Positions 11,397-41,020 of a stretch of 44,277 bases of DNA are shown piece by piece. Source of the stretch: Polaromonas sp. Its GTDB lineage: Bacteria > Pseudomonadota > Gammaproteobacteria > Burkholderiales > Burkholderiaceae_C. The position numbers and the translations under genes are program-made. Location of the stretch: the NCBI GenBank assembly GCA_043738155.1, contig JAYSZH010000032.1, positions 1 through 44,277 on the forward strand. Direction: 5' to 3'. Every line of letters begins with the position of its first letter. Within the stretch, counting starts at the first letter, position 1. The notes below the pieces were generated by a model that did no database searches, was not told the origin of the DNA, and worked only from the letters and a program-made list of their open reading frames with translations.

Positions 11397-12272
11397 ATGT
11401 ATCCATCAAATGCTACCCTCGCAACATCAGCACTTGTCCAAGCGCGACCAGCCGTTTCAAGCAAAACCAAAACCGAAGAAGCACTGCCCTTCACGCTCAA
11501 AATCGTGCGCACGCAGGCTGAATTGAACAAAGCAGTATTGATTCGCCAAGCCGCCTACGACCGCCATTTGCCTGACTTTGCCAAATCTTTGGTGAAACCC
11601 GAAGCGGCAGATTTTGAAAAAGGCACGGTCGTGCTGTTGGCTGAGTCGAAAGAAGATGGCTCGCCTGTGGGCACCATGCGGATTCAAACCAATGCTTACA
11701 AACCGCTGTGCTTGGAGCAATCCATCAACTTACCCCAATGGCTGAAAGAGCTGCCGATGGCGGAAGCGACACGCTTGGGTGTGACCAATCAAGTGGGCGG
11801 CCGCTTGGTGACCACGGCCTTGTTCAAAGCTTTCTACATGTATTGCCAGCAAATTGGTGTGGAATGGATGGTGATTGCGGGTCGCGCACCGGTGGATCGC
11901 ATGTACCAGCGCATGCTGTTTGAAGATGTTGTGCCTGGCCAGGGCTTTGTGCCGCTGGCGCATGCCAACAATTTACCGCACCGCGTGATGTCGTTCAACG
12001 TGAAAACCGCGTTTGAACGCTGGTCTGCTGTGAATCACCCCCTCCTTAACTTCGCAGCACTGACGCACCACCCCGACATCACCTTGGATATGCCACGCAA
12101 ACCACTGTCCATGCCTATCGAGATGCCGTTGATGGCTGCCGCCACGTCTACGATGGTTGTTGCGCCTGCGATTTTGCCGATTCAAACCCTACAAACAGTT
12201 CAAGGCGCAGAGCGACGCTTGCCAGCGATCAATCCTGCCAGCCCAGCGGCAGCGAACCACTACGCGATGTAA
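11397..12272 (+). CDS. GNAT-fold N-acyl amino acid synthase-like protein (FeeM/NasY-like, LuxI-related), putative
   Basis: 291-aa ORF. Its pattern is LKIVRTQAELNKAVLIRQAAYDRH ... VVLLAESKEDGSPVGTMRIQ ... MAEATRLGV ... LFKAFYMYCQQIGVEWMVIAGRAPVDRMYQRMLFEDV. From memory this matches the autoinducer-synthase-like acyltransferase fold. The last ~60 aa are low-complexity Pro/Ala/Met-rich. Confidence 0.5.
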   Translation: MYPSNATLATSALVQARPAVSSKTKTEEALPFTLKIVRTQAELNKAVLIRQAAYDRHLPDFAKSLVKPEAADFEKGTVVLLAESKEDGSPVGTMRIQTNAYKPLCLEQSINLPQWLKELPMAEATRLGVTNQVGGRLVTTALFKAFYMYCQQIGVEWMVIAGRAPVDRMYQRMLFEDVVPGQGFVPLAHANNLPHRVMSFNVKTAFERWSAVNHPLLNFAALTHHPDITLDMPRKPLSMPIEMPLMAAATSTMVVAPAILPIQTLQTVQGAERRLPAINPASPAAANHYAM

Positions 12273-18827: not shown

Positions 18828-20954
18828 ATGCAAAAGTATTCAAACATCCGCCTGCGCCCCAGCATCGTTTTACTGTTCGTCATATTGGTTGTACCTATTT
18901 TCACAGCCATGCTGTGGTTTACGTACACCACAAACGACTCGATGACGCGCATCAACGCCAAAGACTTGATGGGGCGCTTCCGTTTTGAGGCCACAACCAA
19001 CATACAAAACTTGCTCAGACCCATAGAAACCATGGTGGGAACAGCGGCCACACTGGGCAGCACCCAGCAGCAGTTTTTCCGTGATGCCAATTCTTGGGAC
19101 TATTTGAAAGACATTCTTTCGCACAGTGAAACAACCAGCAGTGTCTACGTCGGTTTTGAAGATGGCACGTTTCGCATGGTGATACGCACCAGCCCAGGCA
19201 TGATCATACAAAACCAGTCCGTACCGGCAGAATCAAACCTGGCATACCGCTGGATTGATCGCGGAGATCCCAAAGTCGTTGGTAACTCTGTTTTTGATGT
19301 GTTTACGTTTAAAAACAAACAAGATCTGGCCATTGCTGCGACGCAAGTACCTGCCACTTACGACCCGCGTCAACGTGATTGGTACAGAGCAGCCTCCATC
19401 AACAAAAGAGTGACAATCACGGCACCCTATATTTTTTCAGCTTCAGGCTTGCCGGGCATCACCATTGCAGCGCCTTTTTATGCAGATGGGAAAATGATTG
19501 GTGTCGTAGCGGCAGATATCACGCTGGACAATCTATCGAAATTTCTAGCTGAACGGATCGTCAGCAAAAGTGCGATGAGTTTGATCATCGACGACCACGA
19601 CAAGGTCATTGCAAACTCCAACCTCAAAGAGCAAGCCAAGCGCGTCGCTGGAAAAATCGACCTCAAACATGTCGGCGCGCTGGACAGCGACCTACCAGCG
19701 CTGGCTATGGTGCAGCAATCTAAGGTAGCCGACAAAGACAACTTTACCTTTGTGCATCCCACCACCAAAGAAGAGTACGCAGCCAGTTTCAGCAGTTTTG
19801 CGTCTGACAGCAGCAAGCGCTGGCAAATTTTAATCGTCGCGCCGCTGGATGATTTCTCAGGCCCGCTCAAGGAAAACAACAAACGCCTGCTCGTTTTTGG
19901 TACCTTAGCCATTATTTTGCAAATCCTATTCATTTACTTTTTATCTAGACTCATTGCCAAACCGTTAGAGCGATTGGAGAAAAGGGTCAACGATGTACGC
20001 GAATTGGTTGAAGTAGCTAAGCCCGAGGTGATTGAGTCGCCTATTCGAGAAATTGCATCACTCAGTCGCGCCGTCGATACGCTGGATCATGCCGTTCGCT
20101 CATTCGCAGCTTTCGTTCCAGTGGGTCTGGTTAAGCATTTGATCGACTCAGAACAGCAATTGCAACTAGGTGGAAAAAGCCGTTTTTTGACCATCATGTT
20201 TTGCGACGTAGAAGCTTTTTCGACCTTGGCTGAAAGCAGCCCATCACAAGAATTATTAAGCCGTATCTCCGCCTATTTAGAAGTGGTCACACTGGCTGTT
20301 AACAAAGAACATGGCACGATTGATAAATTCATCGGCGATGCGGCCATGGCCTTTTGGGGTGCGCCGGTGGAGCTGAATGACCATGCTTGGCACGCCTGCG
20401 CCGCAGCCATTCGTATCAGCCAACGCATGGCAAAACTCAACGAAAAATGGGTTGCCGAAGGCTTAGCACCGCTGCAAATACGGGTGGGCATCCATTGCGA
20501 CTCCGTGATGGTGGGTAATATTGGCTCGAAACACCGCATGAGCTACACGGTGATGGGCGATGCTGTGAATTTAACCTCGCGCTTAGAGGGCATCAACAAA
20601 GACTACGGCACACAGATTTGCGTGAGCCAATCTATTTACCGCGAAGTAGGTGAGCGTTTGTCACTTCGTCCGATTGACGAAGTGACCGTCAAAGGTCGTC
20701 GCGGTGCTTTGCATATTTATGAATTGTTCGGCGTGATTGACGCTAACCAGGCAAATTCCGACTTGGAAGCCAGCGCAGAAGTCGTTGAGCAATGCAGGCT
20801 GACAAAATTAGCGCATCAGGCCTACACTGAGAAAAACTGGCAGGAAGCGGCTATTCGCTACGAAGCACTACTCGCGCACCAGCCCAAAGATCAGCTAGCA
20901 GCTCATATGCTCCTGCGCTGCAAAACTGAGCTTCAGCATGGTGTTTCAACATGA
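18828..20954 (+). CDS. Membrane sensor class III adenylate/guanylate cyclase (Cache-like periplasmic domain, HAMP, cyclase, TPR-like tail)
   Basis: 708-aa ORF. It has TM1 (IVLLFVILVVPIFTAML) and a ~320-aa periplasmic region with the ITAPYIF.ASGLPGITIAAPFY...IGVVAADITL Cache signature. TM2 (LLVFGTLAIILQILFIYFLS) and a HAMP-like linker follow. The cyclase core carries FCDVEAFSTL, FIGDAAMAFWGAP and YTVMGDAVNLTSRLEG. Confidence 0.85.
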   Translation: MQKYSNIRLRPSIVLLFVILVVPIFTAMLWFTYTTNDSMTRINAKDLMGRFRFEATTNIQNLLRPIETMVGTAATLGSTQQQFFRDANSWDYLKDILSHSETTSSVYVGFEDGTFRMVIRTSPGMIIQNQSVPAESNLAYRWIDRGDPKVVGNSVFDVFTFKNKQDLAIAATQVPATYDPRQRDWYRAASINKRVTITAPYIFSASGLPGITIAAPFYADGKMIGVVAADITLDNLSKFLAERIVSKSAMSLIIDDHDKVIANSNLKEQAKRVAGKIDLKHVGALDSDLPALAMVQQSKVADKDNFTFVHPTTKEEYAASFSSFASDSSKRWQILIVAPLDDFSGPLKENNKRLLVFGTLAIILQILFIYFLSRLIAKPLERLEKRVNDVRELVEVAKPEVIESPIREIASLSRAVDTLDHAVRSFAAFVPVGLVKHLIDSEQQLQLGGKSRFLTIMFCDVEAFSTLAESSPSQELLSRISAYLEVVTLAVNKEHGTIDKFIGDAAMAFWGAPVELNDHAWHACAAAIRISQRMAKLNEKWVAEGLAPLQIRVGIHCDSVMVGNIGSKHRMSYTVMGDAVNLTSRLEGINKDYGTQICVSQSIYREVGERLSLRPIDEVTVKGRRGALHIYELFGVIDANQANSDLEASAEVVEQCRLTKLAHQAYTEKNWQEAAIRYEALLAHQPKDQLAAHMLLRCKTELQHGVST

Positions 20955-27439: not shown

Positions 27440-30400
27440 TTATTTTTTAACGTCTGGTCTTGGGGTTCTTTTTACTTCTGTCACCACGGGATCAGCCCAG
27501 GTTCCAGAAACTTTAAATTCCTTTGTCACAGCCTCAATCAAAGGCTGCCGAAGAAACAATTGTGCTAAAAATGTACCTAACCCAATAGCGGGGTTGATAG
27601 CGGAAGCAACCAGTATCGATGCTACGCCGGCATTCACCTCGGGCGCATAAACCACCCTTATATCTTGCGTGCCAGCTGCAATATCAGATTTTCCGTCCAT
27701 CAAGATCACCGCATTGACACCGCTGATTTGCATGTTGTTGGTCGTGGCCAGCCCCCGATCGACAGCCACATCGCCACGCAGGAAATCAAATACAAACCCC
27801 TCACTGAATACATCTCTAAAATCTAAGCTCAACCGCTTGGCAATGGATTGCATGCTCAATACGCTCAATAGTTTTGCTGCACCAGGTTCTACTTTCAAAA
27901 ATTGGCCATTCTCCACATTGATATTGAATTGACCTGCCAATGTTGGGTAATTCATCGCCAATGGCGAGCCACGCCAGGTTAACTGCCCATCCAGTTTCCC
28001 TTTGCCGTTACGTACTAGGCCTTCAAATCCGAAACGCTCAAGCAATTTCCCTGTATCAGATATATCTAGTTTAAAGTCTATGCCAGTCGTTCGTCGTTCA
28101 AGTATATTGAGTAAGCTCACATCACCTTTGCCAATGACATCAGTGCGCAAAGCCTCACGATGAGCCCAAAAGCCATTTGCTGTCAATCTCGCTTCTGGTG
28201 TTGTCACGTTCAAATGATTCAAACGCCAAACGCGTGTACCGTCAGCAGTACCGCTAGTATTTGACAAACGATTGACAGCGTCAATTTCAACTTTGCCAAA
28301 CTTTCGACCTCTCAATTCAAAATCTTCAACAACCAAATCTAGTGCAGGAATACTTACTGGTTGCTCATCCAATAATTTTTCCACATCATTAACTTGTGCG
28401 TCGCCAATCACCAATCGCGCTAATCGCGCATAAATGCGTCCGGTTGAGAGCGTTGCTGTAGGCTGCCTGTATTCCACATATCCGCTCAGTTGCTTGGCCT
28501 CCATATTTGCGCGCCAAATTGAGCCTTCCCGTGATCCGCCGATGACGACATTTTCAAATTTTCGACCCTCGACGATCAATTCCTTCGCCCGAACGGCCAT
28601 TGTTGAAGGAATTAAATCATCAAAGACATGCTGGTTTGAAGCTGCTTGCACACCTGCTTTTGATGCTGTACCAACGCTGCTGTTTTGTAAAGAAGAAAAG
28701 AACTTAGACCATTCATCAACGTCCAAGCGATCAACATTAATATTAGCCGCAACAGCGTTGCTTGGCTCCGGCGTTTCCTCACCTGCATCTAAACCCACAC
28801 TCATGGATCCGCGTATAACTTTTGGCACATTGCCGTTGATATCGCGCAAGAGTTTGAAGTTTGCTATTTTTTCAATACTCAGGCTGATGTTGTCTTTTAG
28901 CCGAACCTTGCCATCGCGCTCGGGGATGGTTGATGCTTCAACCAGGGTATTTTCAAATTTCAACGGCCAAATACTTTGCGCAGGCTTGTTGAATGGCGCA
29001 GGTAAAGTCAAAGCCAAACCTTGTAAATTGGTTTGAACAGAAACCTCAGTTTGATCGTGCGCAAAACGTAACTGTGCCGAATAAGCCGTACTGCCAGATG
29101 CGCTTTTAGCCAACTGTGGGATAAAACTTAATTCGCTAGCGCGTTGTAAACCCAGCGCACTAGCGACGCCTTGACCACGGATGACAACGCCTTTACCTGT
29201 GGGACCCAGCGCTGGATCGCTTGCATTCAAATTGCCACCTTCAAAACGAACGGCATCACCAAACATCAGCGCTTGCGCGTCTTTGATCAAAAATCCTTTT
29301 TCAGAAAAGCGCAACAACCCTTTGGCTTGACCTATCAAAGGGGTTTGAGTGGTCATCTGAACATCGTTTCCCAAGAAAACAATATCGCCTTTGACGCGCG
29401 TCTTGTTCAAGTCCCCAATTGGTAACGACATATCAATTTTAAAATCGCCCGAGCCAGTCGATGTTGCCTTGCTCAGCGATTGACTCGTGATGCCGTGCAA
29501 AGGCGACTTATTGACAAAACCCAGCATGTCAACCATGGTGCTTTTGCCCTGCGCACTCACATTGACGACTGTAAACGTCAAATCTGGAATGGCAACATTA
29601 GCCTGCACAATCGCAATCCCTGGCAAGCCTGCCACCTCAGCGCTCGTACTTTTCACACTCAAGCTGGTCCTGTCTAGCACCATTTCACCTGCTACTTTAC
29701 TGAGTTCAGGCCATGGCAAATCAGCAGGGTCTTGCAAGCGCTTGGGCACATAGGCGACGCGCGCATTGTTGAATTTTGCAGTGATTTTGAAATCACCTTG
29801 ATTTGCTTTTGCGGCTGGTATATCCCAAACCTCGCCTTTAATTTTGAAATTGACCTCACTTGCCTTGCCATCAATCAGCAAATCGCGCACATATTCACGC
29901 GCCTGTATGGGAACACCCAACGGCAAATAGCGCGAAACTTTAGCTAACTCAACATTGATCAATTTCGCATTTAAATCCAGCACACCTGGAAATTTACTTC
30001 TGTTGGTTGCTGTAGCCGGATCGCTGGTTTTCCAGCTCAATTGTGCCGTGCCTTGCGCATCTGCATTTTTAAAACTCAGATTGCTCACAGACACATCTAT
30101 TTTGGCATCAGCTTTTCCTTTTGATGTCGTCTGTGTCGTACGCCATACGATATCTGTACTTAACTGGTCAATAGGTATCATCGCATCACCCAACATACCA
30201 GGTAGATCAATCGCACCTTTGTCGATCGTAATTTTTGCCTTACCGCCCGCAGAGTTCATATCAAAATCAATACTTGCGCCGCGAAAACCGGGTCGCCCGA
30301 CTGATTCATGCTTATCAACGCCCTCGCCCACTTTTTGACCGCTGGATTTGGATGAAATTTGCATCCCCTTGACTACACCTTTAGCTTTTAGGTCTTGTGG

Positions 30401-31729
30401 CTCATCTGGATAACCCCGCCAATGTGCAGATATCGACTCAATGACACCTTGTGGCGCCAAACTGGTCAGCAACTCATGGGTTGAAGCACCCAGAGGGATT
30501 TTATTGGCGATCAAGCTGATGACTGCCAAATCCAGCTTGTCCGCCTTAAAGTCGTTGACGCTTTGTGTCGCATCAAAGGTACTTACACCAACATTTGTAG
30601 CCCCCGAGCTCTTTGGCGTCGTGGGATTTGTTTGTGAAAAGAGCATGTTGCCGCCAGGCCAGCGCAAACCGTCTTGCGTTTGAAATTGCAAATTTTGTGT
30701 GGATGCTTCAAAACCTTGTTCAAGCTTGCGCCCGATCAACCGGCCAGACATGGACTGCAAAGCCAGTGGCTCTAAGCCTTTACCCAGCGTTGCGTCCACT
30801 TGTGCCAGCGCGACATCTGCCGTGGTGCTGACCCACTCGCCTTTGGCAATAGCCGTCCAAGCTTTTAAAACGCCGACACCACGTCCCGACTGGCCATCTA
30901 GCTTGATGTAGCGGCTGATTTCTGACACATCAATTTTGGCAAAATCTGTATAAATTTGACCCGACCATGCTTTGACATTGCCTTTATCCCCGGACAACAG
31001 CGATTGCGTAAACAGCCCACGCACTGAAAACCTATCCCCCCAAACAGCTGGCGGCGTAGCATCTAACCGCAGCTCATGCTTGTTCAACGGGTTGCGCGAC
31101 ACAAAATCGACTTGACTTAGCGTCAGCGGCGGCGGCACGCCCAAAGCGCCGTTGGGCATTTCATCCACCCAATGCACCACGCCATTGCGAATAGCGAACT
31201 CTGGCTGCGAAAAAAACCAATCTGCACCGCCACCCGTGTTTCTGTCGTCTTTAGAAAAATCCAAACCTGCAATGGTTAATTTGCCCTGTGCATCGCGTCG
31301 AATGTTCAATTCTGGCGATTCGATCAAAATTTGTTCTACGTTCAATCGCAGCAAAGATGCTGGCGACACTGACGCCAAAATACGCGGCAACTTCAAGGCT
31401 TCGCGACCCGTAGAGTCCAACAAAGCAATGTCTTTGAGCTCGAACGAGGGAATAATGCCGACCGACTTGGCTGAAATTTCACCAATTTTGACGGGAACAC
31501 CCAGCACTTTGCTGGCCTCAATTTCCAGCCGCGGGCGAAGTTCGCCAATACGAGGCACAATCATCCAATGCAATGCCATCCAAGCCAGCCCGAACATCAA
31601 CCACGCAGCCACAGCCAAGCCCAGCAGCAGCTTGCTCAGCGCGGCGGAGATTTTCCAAAATTTCAGGGAAACTTGATCAGATTGATTCATACATGGCAGT
31701 CCACAATTATGACTGCTCGCTTTGGTCAT
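27440..31729 (-). CDS. yhdP: YhdP-family AsmA-like envelope protein (DUF3971 and AsmA_2 architecture)
   Basis: 1429-aa ORF with an N-terminal TM anchor (LLLGLAVAAWLMFGLAWMALHWM), a long beta-rich body and a conserved C-terminal region. It is divergent from glnE. An alternative start at the ATG at 31690 (MNQSDQ) would widen the 23-bp gap to glnE. Confidence 0.8.
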   Translation of the reverse strand: MTKASSHNCGLPCMNQSDQVSLKFWKISAALSKLLLGLAVAAWLMFGLAWMALHWMIVPRIGELRPRLEIEASKVLGVPVKIGEISAKSVGIIPSFELKDIALLDSTGREALKLPRILASVSPASLLRLNVEQILIESPELNIRRDAQGKLTIAGLDFSKDDRNTGGGADWFFSQPEFAIRNGVVHWVDEMPNGALGVPPPLTLSQVDFVSRNPLNKHELRLDATPPAVWGDRFSVRGLFTQSLLSGDKGNVKAWSGQIYTDFAKIDVSEISRYIKLDGQSGRGVGVLKAWTAIAKGEWVSTTADVALAQVDATLGKGLEPLALQSMSGRLIGRKLEQGFEASTQNLQFQTQDGLRWPGGNMLFSQTNPTTPKSSGATNVGVSTFDATQSVNDFKADKLDLAVISLIANKIPLGASTHELLTSLAPQGVIESISAHWRGYPDEPQDLKAKGVVKGMQISSKSSGQKVGEGVDKHESVGRPGFRGASIDFDMNSAGGKAKITIDKGAIDLPGMLGDAMIPIDQLSTDIVWRTTQTTSKGKADAKIDVSVSNLSFKNADAQGTAQLSWKTSDPATATNRSKFPGVLDLNAKLINVELAKVSRYLPLGVPIQAREYVRDLLIDGKASEVNFKIKGEVWDIPAAKANQGDFKITAKFNNARVAYVPKRLQDPADLPWPELSKVAGEMVLDRTSLSVKSTSAEVAGLPGIAIVQANVAIPDLTFTVVNVSAQGKSTMVDMLGFVNKSPLHGITSQSLSKATSTGSGDFKIDMSLPIGDLNKTRVKGDIVFLGNDVQMTTQTPLIGQAKGLLRFSEKGFLIKDAQALMFGDAVRFEGGNLNASDPALGPTGKGVVIRGQGVASALGLQRASELSFIPQLAKSASGSTAYSAQLRFAHDQTEVSVQTNLQGLALTLPAPFNKPAQSIWPLKFENTLVEASTIPERDGKVRLKDNISLSIEKIANFKLLRDINGNVPKVIRGSMSVGLDAGEETPEPSNAVAANINVDRLDVDEWSKFFSSLQNSSVGTASKAGVQAASNQHVFDDLIPSTMAVRAKELIVEGRKFENVVIGGSREGSIWRANMEAKQLSGYVEYRQPTATLSTGRIYARLARLVIGDAQVNDVEKLLDEQPVSIPALDLVVEDFELRGRKFGKVEIDAVNRLSNTSGTADGTRVWRLNHLNVTTPEARLTANGFWAHREALRTDVIGKGDVSLLNILERRTTGIDFKLDISDTGKLLERFGFEGLVRNGKGKLDGQLTWRGSPLAMNYPTLAGQFNINVENGQFLKVEPGAAKLLSVLSMQSIAKRLSLDFRDVFSEGFVFDFLRGDVAVDRGLATTNNMQISGVNAVILMDGKSDIAAGTQDIRVVYAPEVNAGVASILVASAINPAIGLGTFLAQLFLRQPLIEAVTKEFKVSGTWADPVVTEVKRTPRPDVKK

Positions 31730-37953: not shown

Positions 37954-39015
37954 TTACTGGATCTGCTCCGCCCTGTAAAACCCCGAGCTAACCAGTACTT
38001 GCTTGATATTGGCAGCGTCAACCAATACGGGTTTTAGCAAGAATGATGGCACGACTTTGACCCCGTTGTTGTACGTTTTGTTGTCATTCACTGTGGGCGC
38101 TTTGCCTTGAATCAAGGCTTCTGCCATTTGGGCGGTGACGCGGGCCAGTTCGCGGGTGTCTTTGAAAATGGTGGACGACTGCTGGCCGCGCAGCACCGAT
38201 TTGGTGGCGGGTATATCTGCGTCTTGACCTGTAATCACTGGCATGGGGTTGCCAGCTTGCCCATAGCCCGCTTTGGCAAAACCAGTGATCAACTCGGCGG
38301 CAATGCCGTCATTGGGGGCCAGCACAGCATCCAAGCGCAGCTTTGAATAATACTTTGGCAGCAAAACACTCAAACGCGCTTTGGCGATGGCGCCGTTCCA
38401 GCCTTTGGTGGAGACGTTGTTCATGCCCTCTTGGCCAGATTCAATGACCAGTTGTTTTTTATCGATATACGGCTTGAGCACAGACATCGCACCGTCGTAA
38501 AAGAAAAAGGCGTTGTTATCGTCTGGCGAGCCGGCAAACAACTCAATGCGAAACGGGCCTTTGCCGGCGGCGAGCTCCAAGCGTTTCACGATGTCCGCGC
38601 CTTGTTTCACGCCGACATCAAAATTGTCAAACGTGGCGTAGTAGTCCACATTGGCACTGTCACGAATCAAGCGGTCATAGGATATGACCTTGATTTTCTT
38701 CTCGCCGGCTTTTTTCAAAACCTCGGTCAACTTTTTGCCGTCGACAGCGGCAATAACGAGCACTTTCGCGCCTTTTTTGATCATGCCTTCAATTTGCGCA
38801 ATTTGCATGTCTGCACCACCGCTGGCGTATTGCAAATCAGACGCCAGGTTGACCTTGTTCAGCTCCCGCATGATGGACAAGCCGTCGTTCACCCAGCGCA
38901 TGTTGCTGAATTCTGGCATGGACACACCGACTGCGATTTGCTCTTGCGCCAAGCTAGTGCTGCAAAAAGCAATGCAAGCGACTGAAGCCACCATTTTTAA
39001 TTTTGAAAATACCAT
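37954..39015 (-). CDS. Periplasmic sugar-binding protein (ChvE-like, multiple-monosaccharide ABC substrate-binding family), orphan
   Basis: 353-aa ORF with a signal peptide (MVASVACIAFCSTSLAQE) and a type I periplasmic-binding fold (VISYDRLI, NDGIAAELI, ITGQDAD). No permease or ATPase gene is adjacent. Confidence 0.8.
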   Translation of the reverse strand: MVFSKLKMVASVACIAFCSTSLAQEQIAVGVSMPEFSNMRWVNDGLSIMRELNKVNLASDLQYASGGADMQIAQIEGMIKKGAKVLVIAAVDGKKLTEVLKKAGEKKIKVISYDRLIRDSANVDYYATFDNFDVGVKQGADIVKRLELAAGKGPFRIELFAGSPDDNNAFFFYDGAMSVLKPYIDKKQLVIESGQEGMNNVSTKGWNGAIAKARLSVLLPKYYSKLRLDAVLAPNDGIAAELITGFAKAGYGQAGNPMPVITGQDADIPATKSVLRGQQSSTIFKDTRELARVTAQMAEALIQGKAPTVNDNKTYNNGVKVVPSFLLKPVLVDAANIKQVLVSSGFYRAEQIQ

Positions 39016-39175: not shown

Positions 39176-40093
39176 TCATTTTCTACCCACGCAAGGCTCA
39201 AACCCGCCTGATCCGCCACCCAGGGCGTAACCGATACCAAAACCGCCCGCTTTGGTCGAGCCTGATACGCCACCGCCAACCTTGATGGACAAGCGCTCTG
39301 TGATGCGCGTTGCCAAGCCGATGGCAAAGCCGTTCTCGCTGCCCGATTTGGCAACCCCCGCGCCTACATAAACCAAGCCGCATTCGCCTGTCGTTGGCAG
39401 CGGCATAAAGGCCGTTGCCATGGCGATAGCTGTAAGTTGAGCTGCTTTGCGGTCAACATCGGCCAGCTGTGACAAGGTGGCTGAATTCGGCGCTGAATCA
39501 CCCTTGTCTCCTTTGTCGCCCTTGTCCCCCTTCAAACCATCAGCACCATTGGTTCCGTTTGCGCCAGTGCCACCATTGGCTCCGTTTGCGCCAGTGCCAC
39601 CGTTGGCTCCGTTCACCCCAGCCACACCCTGAATTCCTTGAGCACCAGTAGCTCCGTTCGTTCCATTGGTTCCGTTCGTTCCATTGGTTCCGTTCGTTCC
39701 GCTGGTTCCGTTCGTTCCGCTGGTTCCTGCTGCACCTTGAGCGCCAGTTGCTCCCGTCGCTCCAGTTGCTCCGGTTGCACCTCGCGGCCCTGTTGCACCT
39801 GCTGGACCCATCGGCCCTGTTGCACCTGTTGGTCCTGTTGGACCCATCGGCCCTGTTGCACCTGTTGGTCCTGCAGATCCTGCAGGTCCTGTGGCTCCTG
39901 TATCACCAGTATGCCCACGTGTCCCTGGAGTGCCCGGAGGGCCGTCATCATTGCCACTGGCTGAGGCTGCTGTTGCGTGCAGCACCCCCATCACCAGCAC
40001 GGCACTAGGTGCTAGATAAGCGCCTGACAGCATCAAAGACGCCAGTAATGCGCTGTGGATACGATTTGTCGGTTTCTGAATGCGATGTGTCAT
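39176..40093 (-). CDS. Secreted collagen-like (Gly-X-Y) repeat protein with a YadA-like C-terminal anchor candidate
   Basis: The start ATG (complement of 40091..40093) is preceded by AGGAG at 7-nt spacing. The signal peptide is [45 protein letters not shown]. About 50 uninterrupted GXY triplets run from [13 protein letters not shown] to [12 protein letters not shown]. The ~100-aa tail is [70 protein letters not shown]. Confidence 0.85.
39494..39943 (-). repeat. In-frame 9-, 18- and 27-bp tandem repeat tracts encoding the Gly-X-Y region
   Basis: Examples are GGTTCCGTTCGTTCCATT / GGTTCCGTTCGTTCCGCT units (about 39655..39725), a duplicated 27-mer CCCATCGGCCCTGTTGCACCTGTTGGT (about 39800..39875), a 27-mer duplication around 39565..39620, and (GDK)x3 at 39497..39530. 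Confidence 0.85.
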
Positions 40094-40516
40094 TGCAGCT
40101 CTCCTCGGAGGTATTGAATTTGTAACATTTCTAGCTTCAAAACCGCAGAAAAAGAAGATTTGTGTACTTTTTAAGTCACATACTTCCAAAATTAATGCTG
40201 TTTGTACTTATTTTGTTGACATTTGTCACAATGAGCAATACCCATTTTTTTGAGCATTAAAAGTGTCAAATCCACCCAAAATTAGCTACAGAAAAGATAG
40301 CGAAACGGGTTTTCTCACATTGGTGAATGTGTAGCTTTGTAAGTATTTAAGTAATTTTTAAGAGATGATTGTTAGGCGGTCACCCTATATGTTTCAATTT
40401 GTATTAAATGAAACAAAAAGAAACTGAACGTTCAAAATCTGAATCCGAAACAAATGCCGCCAGGCTTCATAAAAGTACTGACACTTTGAGATCAACAAAT
40501 GATGAAAAACGATAAA

Positions 40517-40594: not shown

Positions 40595-41020
40595 TCACTT
40601 AGGTGATGAAGCGCCTTCCGCAGCTCGCTCAGCATAGGTATTGAAACGCCAAGAGGTACTCTCCAGCGTGATGCGGTGCCAGGTGTCTCGCTTTTCTATG
40701 GGCGACATGCCTGGCCAGTGTTGCACTTCTTCAAAGGTGCGGCCACAACCTTTGCACATTTCGTCTCCTTGGCTGGTGGAGCAAATAGCAATGCAGGGTG
40801 TGTCTGGCGTGGTCTCATACCAAGCCAACCAAGCAGACATCGCTTTGGGTGGGAAACCCTCTGCTGCTGCGGTATCCTGGCGATAAAACACCATCAAGGC
40901 ATAGACCGTTGCCAGCGCCCGCAATTCGGGGCACAGCGTCACGCCATCGGGTGACGGGCTTCTGCTGCGCCAGTAGTTGATGGCGGCTTCTATGTCGGTG
41001 ATGTGCAGGACGGCTTTCAC
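40595..41020 (-). CDS. DUF3717-like N-terminal region fused to a DUF1289-type Cys motif domain
   Basis: 141-aa ORF. The N-terminus ITDIEAAINYWRSRSPSP...LCPELRALATVYALM resembles DUF3717. The centre PCIAICSTSQGDEMCKGCGRTFEEVQHW matches the DUF1289 C..C-x-C..C pattern. Confidence 0.65.
   Translation of the reverse strand: MKAVLHITDIEAAINYWRSRSPSPDGVTLCPELRALATVYALMVFYRQDTAAAEGFPPKAMSAWLAWYETTPDTPCIAICSTSQGDEMCKGCGRTFEEVQHWPGMSPIEKRDTWHRITLESTSWRFNTYAERAAEGASSPK

Follow-up and report, generated by a model that had tools for sequence, protein, structure and literature searches.

A candidate minimal trimeric autotransporter with a collagen-like passenger in Polaromonas

Results

Organisation of the gene and its product

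The stretch of DNA analysed here (hereafter the window) comprises 44,277 nucleotides (nt) of Polaromonas sp., positions 1 to 44,277 of contig JAYSZH010000032.1 in assembly GCA_043738155.1. On its minus strand lies an open reading frame (ORF) of 305 codons, with its ATG at 40093 and its stop codon at 39176-39178, which we read, with a probability of roughly 80%, as the gene for a minimal type Vc outer-membrane protein, that is, a trimeric autotransporter, whose passenger is a collagen rod. From its N-terminus onward, the protein comprises a signal-peptide-like segment (residues 1-45), a Gly-X-Y region (residues 51-200) and a non-collagen tail of 105 residues (201-305). The features of the gene are as follows.

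39176..40093, minus strand: complete coding sequence of the candidate minimal trimeric autotransporter with collagen-like passenger (305 amino acids plus stop; intact orthologous ORFs in the related assemblies L004 and L005)
40101..40106, minus strand: ribosome-binding site GAGGAG, 7 nt 5' of the ATG (read from the sequence)
39959..40093, minus strand: signal-peptide-like N-terminus, residues 1-45 (hydropathy scan and conserved cleavage-site residues)
39494..39943, minus strand: collagen-like region, residues 51-200, 50 uninterrupted Gly-X-Y triplets (Pfam Collagen, triplet count, tandem DNA repeats)
39410..39484, minus strand: predicted alpha-helix, residues 204-228, expected to cross the barrel lumen (AlphaFold2; matched in the alignment by the N..QL / AIAAA helix in other anchors)
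39380..39382, minus strand: Cys238 in the turn from the helix to strand 1 (TTGECG), invariant in the Polaromonas clade
39224..39373, minus strand: four amphipathic beta-strands, residues 241-290, the Pfam YadA_anchor match (Pfam, AlphaFold2, fold matches)
39179..39220, minus strand: C-terminal extension, residues 292-305, after the last strand (...GFGIGYAL), conserved in all seven clade members (predicted local distance difference test, pLDDT, 56-59)
39191-39193, minus strand: Cys301, within the C-terminal extension (clade alignment)

The AGGAG core of the ribosome-binding site is kept in the orthologue alignment. The N-terminus has a basic n-region with four basic residues, a hydrophobic stretch of ~24 residues (Kyte-Doolittle up to 2.1), which is unusually long for a signal peptide, and a putative cleavage site between A-S-A and S at residues 43-46, where the small residues at -3 and -1 are kept in L001, L002, L004 and L005. 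The five residues SGNDD are all that separates this site from the first triplet, and a Pfam scan of the protein gave no match to ESPR (PF13018). The gene is richer in G+C than the window (59% against 51%), which is accounted for by the Gly, Ala, Pro and Thr codons of the repeat, and the difference need not imply a foreign origin.

The collagen-like passenger

The first-pass annotation, made from the sequence alone, had described about 50 uninterrupted Gly-X-Y triplets rich in Thr, Asn, Ala and Pro. The count comes to exactly 50 at residues 51-200, and of the 99 X and Y positions Thr takes 27, Ala 22, Asn 12 and Pro 11, with Thr, Asn, Ala and Ser together making up 65% and charged residues 12%. 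A run of this length is far beyond chance: when the protein was shuffled 2000 times with its composition preserved, runs reached at most 8 triplets, and across the six frames of the whole window this is the only run of at least 8. The Pfam Collagen model (PF01391) matches the protein with E=9e-23 and 80 bits against a cut-off of 27.2, and the NCBIfam SclB and Lcl models align with the Gly-X-Y part only, far under their cut-offs. The DNA beneath consists of tandem repeats of 9, 18, 27 and 36 nt with up to 96% matches. KGD-type triplets adjoin the anchor and are kept in L001-L004, GPAGPAG standing there in L005 and L006, and the anchor domain starts 4 residues past the last triplet. At 0.286 nm per residue the 150 residues give a predicted rod length of ~43 nm. 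A homologue search with the full-length protein was dominated by generic Gly-X-Y proteins, and no anchor was found among the 120 of its 5555 matches that were listed.

The C-terminal tail as a YadA-type anchor

That the tail resembles a YadA anchor had been proposed from pattern recognition, and four independent tests (Pfam, PDB profile, independent profile and fold) now bear this out. The tail segments that the first-pass annotation cited all occur in the translated sequence. In the Pfam check suggested at first pass, the isolated tail matches YadA_anchor (PF03895) with E=1.1e-8 and 35.4 bits (cut-off 22.7), the match spanning profile positions 9-59 of 60. A profile built from the tail and 41 relatives, compared with PDB sequences, retrieved Hia (6e-13), YadA (7e-8) and AtaA (2e-5). 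As a control for circularity, a profile made from 39 non-Polaromonas anchors only was run on the 294 six-frame ORFs of the window, and its sole match was this ORF (E=5e-19, 63 bits). Finally, AlphaFold2, given the tail with the alignment of its relatives, modelled the monomer as a helix (5-29 in tail numbering) followed by four strands (42-51, 54-64, 69-78 and 81-90) with a mean pLDDT of 79, and the top five Foldseek matches of this model in the PDB were Hia (3emo, 2gr7, 2gr8), AtaA (9vnj) and YadA (2lme), with template modelling (TM) scores of 0.60-0.69, the best of them superposing with a root-mean-square deviation (rmsd) of 1.7 A across 87 columns; below these five, scores drop to noise.

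In the alignment, several traits of other anchors recur in the Polaromonas clade: the N..QL motif, a helix with AIAxA, a Pro that follows this helix, and glycines in the strands. Read from the sequence, the strands alternate V/I/L/F/Y with Gly/Ala, as would be expected for a lipid-facing barrel with a helix-packed lumen. We conclude that the tail is a true anchor protomer of the trimeric-autotransporter family; its trimerisation we infer from family membership. Pfam finds neither of the YadA head and stalk domains (PF05658, PF05662) in the protein.

Beyond the last strand the clade has an extension of its own, with the 14-residue consensus GGGSG(G/A)FEPCxxxK in seven of seven members, which is modelled by AlphaFold2 with low confidence. 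The G-x-x-Y-x-L motif of the last strand is kept, although it is internal. Each clade member has exactly two cysteines, one in the turn (Cys238) and one in the extension (Cys301). No Cys occurs at either position in the 39 other anchors, 37 of which are free of Cys throughout the anchor region.

Orthologues and turnover of the repeat

Close relatives of the tail are few. A word-indexed search of 5.8 billion proteins returned two fragments, P0001 and P0002, and an exhaustive HMMER search over 1.84 billion representatives returned eight proteins at E<=1e-3; other than P0002, these are environmental sequences in which anchors 37-46% identical to ours sit on non-collagen repeat passengers. A scan of one genome per species gave five loci, all in Polaromonas or 'Burkholderiaceae' metagenome-assembled genomes (MAGs), several of them named for glacier-fed-stream samples. 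Scans of metagenome contigs from the Joint Genome Institute (JGI) with the tail alignment and P0002 gave no confirmed relatives.

Homologues with the same collagen-plus-anchor layout, which the first-pass annotation had proposed looking for, were found complete in L004 (~295 amino acids) and L005 (256 amino acids). Its worry that the tail might be read in the wrong frame is resolved by six other assemblies, in which the in-frame tail, including the odd C-terminus, is kept. Tail identity across the clade is 78-97%, whereas the collagen part varies in length and sequence. Against L004 the tail is 92% identical and the collagen part 60%, with 18 gap columns; against L005 the figures are 78% and 42%, with 45 gap columns, and the tails of both align with ours almost gap-free. 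In L002 the tail is 97% identical and the rod is far more charged, being rich in GDK and GNK. The rods of the orthologues are runs of 27-42 triplets, with one non-Gly triplet each in L004 (GANAANGAN) and L005 (GTASAAGTP), and the junction between collagen and anchor, GD(S/A)APNSATL(S/T)QLAD, is common to L001-L006. These comparisons point to an anchor that is conserved while its passenger turns over fast, Gly being kept at every third position. A conserved tail joined to a varying rod of kept periodicity argues against a frameshift or chimera, and the retention of Gly at every third residue despite the turnover speaks for selection that acts on the triplet spacing itself.

Assemblies also tend to break within the repeat. 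L002 (1-762), L003 (2-655) and L006 (59-631) leave their contigs inside it and L001 (3574-4436) has a scaffold gap inside it, so that four of the six related assemblies break or are N-gapped inside the Gly-X-Y repeat. When three full-length proteins of the clade were looked up by exact match in a collection of 15 billion, none was found and only the fragments P0001 and P0002 were present, because assemblies break inside the repeat, and such genes are probably under-represented systematically in metagenome gene catalogues.

The nearest non-Polaromonas anchors, those of P0004 and P0005, belong to trimeric autotransporters of ~330 amino acids whose passenger is made of ~10-residue 'NATTGNVGTL'-like repeats, which carry no Pfam annotation among the matches listed. 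The comparison suggests that the passenger has been swapped on a conserved small anchor.

Upstream region and genomic context

The upstream regions of four orthologous loci are AT-rich and poorly conserved apart from two invariant segments, GGGTATTG and CAAAAT.A.TACAAA, which lie ~110-150 nt 5' of the start codon and define one further feature.

40200..40243, minus strand: conserved upstream block, possible promoter or operator (TTGCTC, 17 nt, CAAAAT), from four orthologous upstream regions

Read as a weak -35 element (TTGCTC), a 17-nt spacer and a -10 element (CAAAAT), the block could be a promoter or a regulator site; if a promoter, it would imply a 5' leader of ~110 nt. It was not called by a consensus promoter scan. 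Around the gene, the consensus scan for promoters and terminators gave sites no more numerous than in shuffled controls, and an Rfam scan gave only sub-threshold chance matches, with no riboswitch such as one for cyclic di-GMP (c-di-GMP).

In the window, the contig of P0001 and L004 the locus has the same order: M48 peptidase, holin_4_2-family membrane protein, DUF3717/DUF1289, the autotransporter gene, YaeQ, adenylosuccinate lyase, glutathione S-transferase (GST) and GlnE. A prophage or mobile-element setting was considered and is ruled out by the housekeeping neighbours and by the synteny across MAGs. Directly upstream and on the same strand, at every orthologous locus, is a fusion of DUF3717 with a Cys-rich DUF1289 (40595-41020, minus strand), a linkage that may reflect only the close kinship of the genomes. 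A gene for a sugar-binding protein of the Peripla_BP_4 family (37954-39015, minus strand) separates yaeQ from the autotransporter gene in the window and L002 and is missing at that position in L001, L004 and L005, a small indel in otherwise conserved synteny; within the stretch examined no partner genes of an ATP-binding cassette (ABC) transporter adjoin it. Farther away are genes for an adenylate/guanylate cyclase with a dCache sensor (18828-20954, plus strand), a FeeM-like N-acyl amino acid synthase (11397-12272, plus strand) and a YhdP (AsmA-like) envelope protein of 1429 amino acids (27440-31729, minus strand), which look like ordinary chromosomal genes without an evident tie to the autotransporter.

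Discussion

A proposed collagen rod built outward from a membrane barrel

The arrangement described above suggests how such a protein would be made. The precursor would be exported through the Sec pathway and its signal peptide cleaved after about Ala45, after which the C-terminal units of three chains, each of ~90 residues, would be assembled by the beta-barrel assembly machinery (BAM) into a 12-stranded barrel with four strands per chain and three helices in the lumen. Passengers of trimeric autotransporters emerge C-terminal end first, and collagen folds from C to N starting at a trimerisation domain. The passenger would accordingly leave the cell with its C-terminal end leading, with barrel and short coiled helix keeping the chains in register, and the three Gly-X-Y chains of 150 residues would zip from the membrane outward into one collagen-type triple helix, a headless fibre of ~43 nm. 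Since the helix, at ~25 residues, is just long enough to traverse the barrel, the rod would start at its mouth. KGD and KGE sequences stabilise triple helices, and the KGD-rich triplets beside the anchor are probably the stable nucleation segment, the Pro-poor remainder, rich in Thr, Asn and Ala, being predicted to form a low-melting helix suited to a cold-water organism. Recombination between repeats in the DNA would permit fast change of fibre length and surface among strains. With no head domain, the rod itself must be the functional surface, and its likeliest role would be that of a surface fibre or 'nap' for non-specific adhesion, autoaggregation or biofilm attachment. We favour an adhesive or aggregative role by analogy with other trimeric autotransporters, VtaA2, and the BclA and Scl fibres.

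Several observations weigh against this interpretation. A Pfam scan of the full-length protein yields Collagen alone, even at E<=10 (NCBIfam likewise gives collagen-type matches only), and a PDB search with the single sequence gives a weak YadA match (E=0.37). The last strand ends ...GYAL and is followed by 14 residues with no terminal aromatic, a departure from the anchor pattern that had been flagged at the outset and that is confirmed, whereas in 37 of the 39 related anchors the chain stops no more than two residues after F or W (...F-K/R or ...W), mostly as ...GYTFK or ...GYSW; two of these 39 carry extensions too. Such an aromatic end is common in the family without defining it. As to the rod, only 11% of the X and Y positions are Pro and 12% charged, and Asn in the Y position destabilises the triple helix, so that a large part of the rod may have only marginal stability or be disordered.

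This last point leads to the strongest of the other readings, in which the barrel is real and the Gly-X-Y part is a flexible, disordered and possibly glycosylated 'brush' of three separate chains. The scarcity of Pro and charged residues beside 65% Thr, Asn, Ala and Ser would suit it, as would the tolerance of L004 and L005 for one non-Gly triplet each, and there is a precedent in proteins of the Burkholderia cepacia complex that are annotated as collagen-like, with GTS repeats, and are predicted to be disordered (PMC10224339). A linker would not need periodicity, however, and we find 50 perfect triplets here and runs of 27-42 in the orthologues despite the turnover. The chains would moreover be held as an obligate trimer at one end, with KGD triplets beside the anchor, the cold habitat lowers the stability that is required, and all eight bacterial collagens that were expressed and tested form triple helices, without hydroxyproline (PMC4066190). 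We therefore consider a disordered brush unlikely.

A different question is whether the same structure serves mainly some end other than adhesion, as a protective or surface-conditioning layer in glacier-fed streams (a shield against phages or grazers, a hydration layer, or one that interacts with ice or minerals), comparable to the BclA nap of the Bacillus exosporium. The protein has no head or ligand-binding domain, its passenger is strongly variable between close relatives, as under diversifying pressure, and its relatives were found in Polaromonas MAGs from glaciers and streams, all of which would agree with such a layer. We nevertheless regard it as distinctly improbable as the main role, given that characterised trimeric autotransporters are mainly adhesins or autoagglutinins and that VtaA2 attaches in part through its collagen repeats (PMC6755704).

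That the tail is no functional anchor, its likeness being due to chance or composition or the gene being an assembly chimera or a pseudogene with an unrelated Gly-rich tail, is very unlikely and already largely refuted: the full-length Pfam scan does lack the anchor, the C-terminus is atypical, related contigs often break within the repeat and no full-length copy occurs in the 15-billion-protein collection, but all four independent anchor tests are positive, intact ORFs of the same layout occur in the independent assemblies L004 and L005, the junction is shared by L001-L006 and conservation within the protein is highest in the tail.

The clade-specific cysteines

Returning to the collagen-rod autotransporter, the two cysteines can be placed on the known topology of these anchors, in which the helix comes in from the outside, the odd-numbered strands (1 and 3) lead outward and the even-numbered ones (2 and 4) inward, and each chain's strand 4 is paired with its neighbour's strand 1. 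On that topology both cysteines would lie at the periplasmic rim of the barrel. Given this pairing, a disulfide either within a chain or between chains is geometrically plausible, and a Cys238-Cys301 bond may staple the extension to the base of the barrel. A bolder proposal, which might be called 'membrane-nucleated collagen' and which we put forward as doubtful, is that a ring of disulfides between protomers, from Cys301 of one to Cys238 of its neighbour, locks the periplasmic face of the barrel trimer and thereby lets the headless, Pro-poor and cold-labile triple helix fold outward and serve by itself as the adhesive surface. Such a lock, if real, would be the counterpart of the C-terminal cystine knot of some animal collagens.

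Comparison with known systems

The first-pass annotation did not know the pairing of a collagen helix with a trimeric-autotransporter anchor as a characterised architecture in this lineage. For Polaromonas this stands as far as a limited literature search goes, in which we found no description of any such Polaromonas protein, nor of a headless collagen-only passenger; the pairing as such is not unprecedented, being present in the VtaA proteins of Glaesserella parasuis. In strain Nagasaki each of the 13 VtaA proteins carries 2-8 Pfam Collagen domains, immediately followed by the YadA anchor (PMC6211672; PMC6755704, PMC5422950), and deletion of repeats lowered attachment to collagen (PMC6211672, PMC6755704). 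The likeness lies in the collagen repeats standing directly N-terminal to the anchor and in a collagen part that varies in its repeats. The VtaA proteins, in contrast, are large (1225 amino acids in VtaA2) and carry an ESPR, a YadA head of the left-handed beta-roll type and a coiled stalk, none of which Pfam finds in the Polaromonas protein, in which collagen is the entire passenger. The anchors are not closely related, and the hosts are a pathogen of the Pasteurellaceae on one side and a free-living cold-water betaproteobacterium on the other. By sequence, then, the Polaromonas protein is not a member of the VtaA family, despite having the same kind of collagen-to-anchor junction. A 'collagen triple helix repeat protein' of Pasteurella atlantica has been reported to model best on Hia (PMC8226905).

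With the anchors of Hia (2gr7, 3emo), YadA (2lme) and AtaA (9vnj) the Polaromonas tail has in common the lumen helix followed by four strands, the small residues of AIAxA, the strand glycines and the PF03895 match. It differs from them in sequence (21-27% identity), in a helix of ~25 residues that leaves essentially no coiled-coil stalk outside the barrel, in the replacement of the terminal aromatic residue by Leu, followed by the 14-residue extension, and in the two clade-specific cysteines.

Bucl8 of Burkholderia pseudomallei and B. mallei is also a betaproteobacterial trimeric outer-membrane protein with a collagen-like region that is predicted to project (PMC4565658). Its membrane part, however, is an efflux duct of the TolC/OprM type with two OEP domains and its collagen is C-terminal, whereas in Polaromonas a 12-stranded barrel of the YadA type is predicted and the collagen is N-terminal. 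The collagen-like proteins of the Burkholderia cepacia complex (Bcc-CLPs), RcpA/B of Ralstonia and the Bucl proteins were considered as relatives and set aside: none has a YadA anchor, the group being made up of lipoproteins, secreted proteins and efflux ducts, and those of the B. cepacia complex and Ralstonia are no autotransporters. Scl1 and Scl2 of Streptococcus pyogenes and BclA of Bacillus anthracis likewise have a long uninterrupted Gly-X-Y rod on the surface of the cell or spore, an adjacent trimerisation domain and polymorphism in repeat number, and the Thr-rich triplets resemble those of BclA. These proteins are anchored through LPXTG and sortase or in the basal layer of the exosporium and have a globular head or trimerisation domain, placed distally or proximally, whereas in Polaromonas there is no globular domain and the barrel would be the trimerisation unit.

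Significance

What is new here is a passenger that lacks a head and consists of collagen alone, together with the extension that carries a Cys and a lineage that is environmental and psychrophilic, the modules and their combination being already known, and the Polaromonas protein leaves the understanding of collagen-like proteins and of autotransporters unchanged. The conserved Cys pair, predicted to be periplasmic, provides a specific hypothesis that can be tested cheaply. If the collagen-rod reading is true, the protein would be a natural scaffold for the display of collagen-like rods on Gram-negative cells and a compact system for the study of passenger folding during type Vc export, as the slow, directional folding of collagen lets the process be followed. 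With ~260 mature residues and no head, neck or stalk, it would also be the simplest natural case of a membrane barrel that gives both trimerisation and register to a collagen helix. Routine annotation would overlook its anchor, because a whole-protein Pfam scan reports Collagen alone, and for the same reason autotransporters with collagen passengers may be under-counted in environmental genomes.

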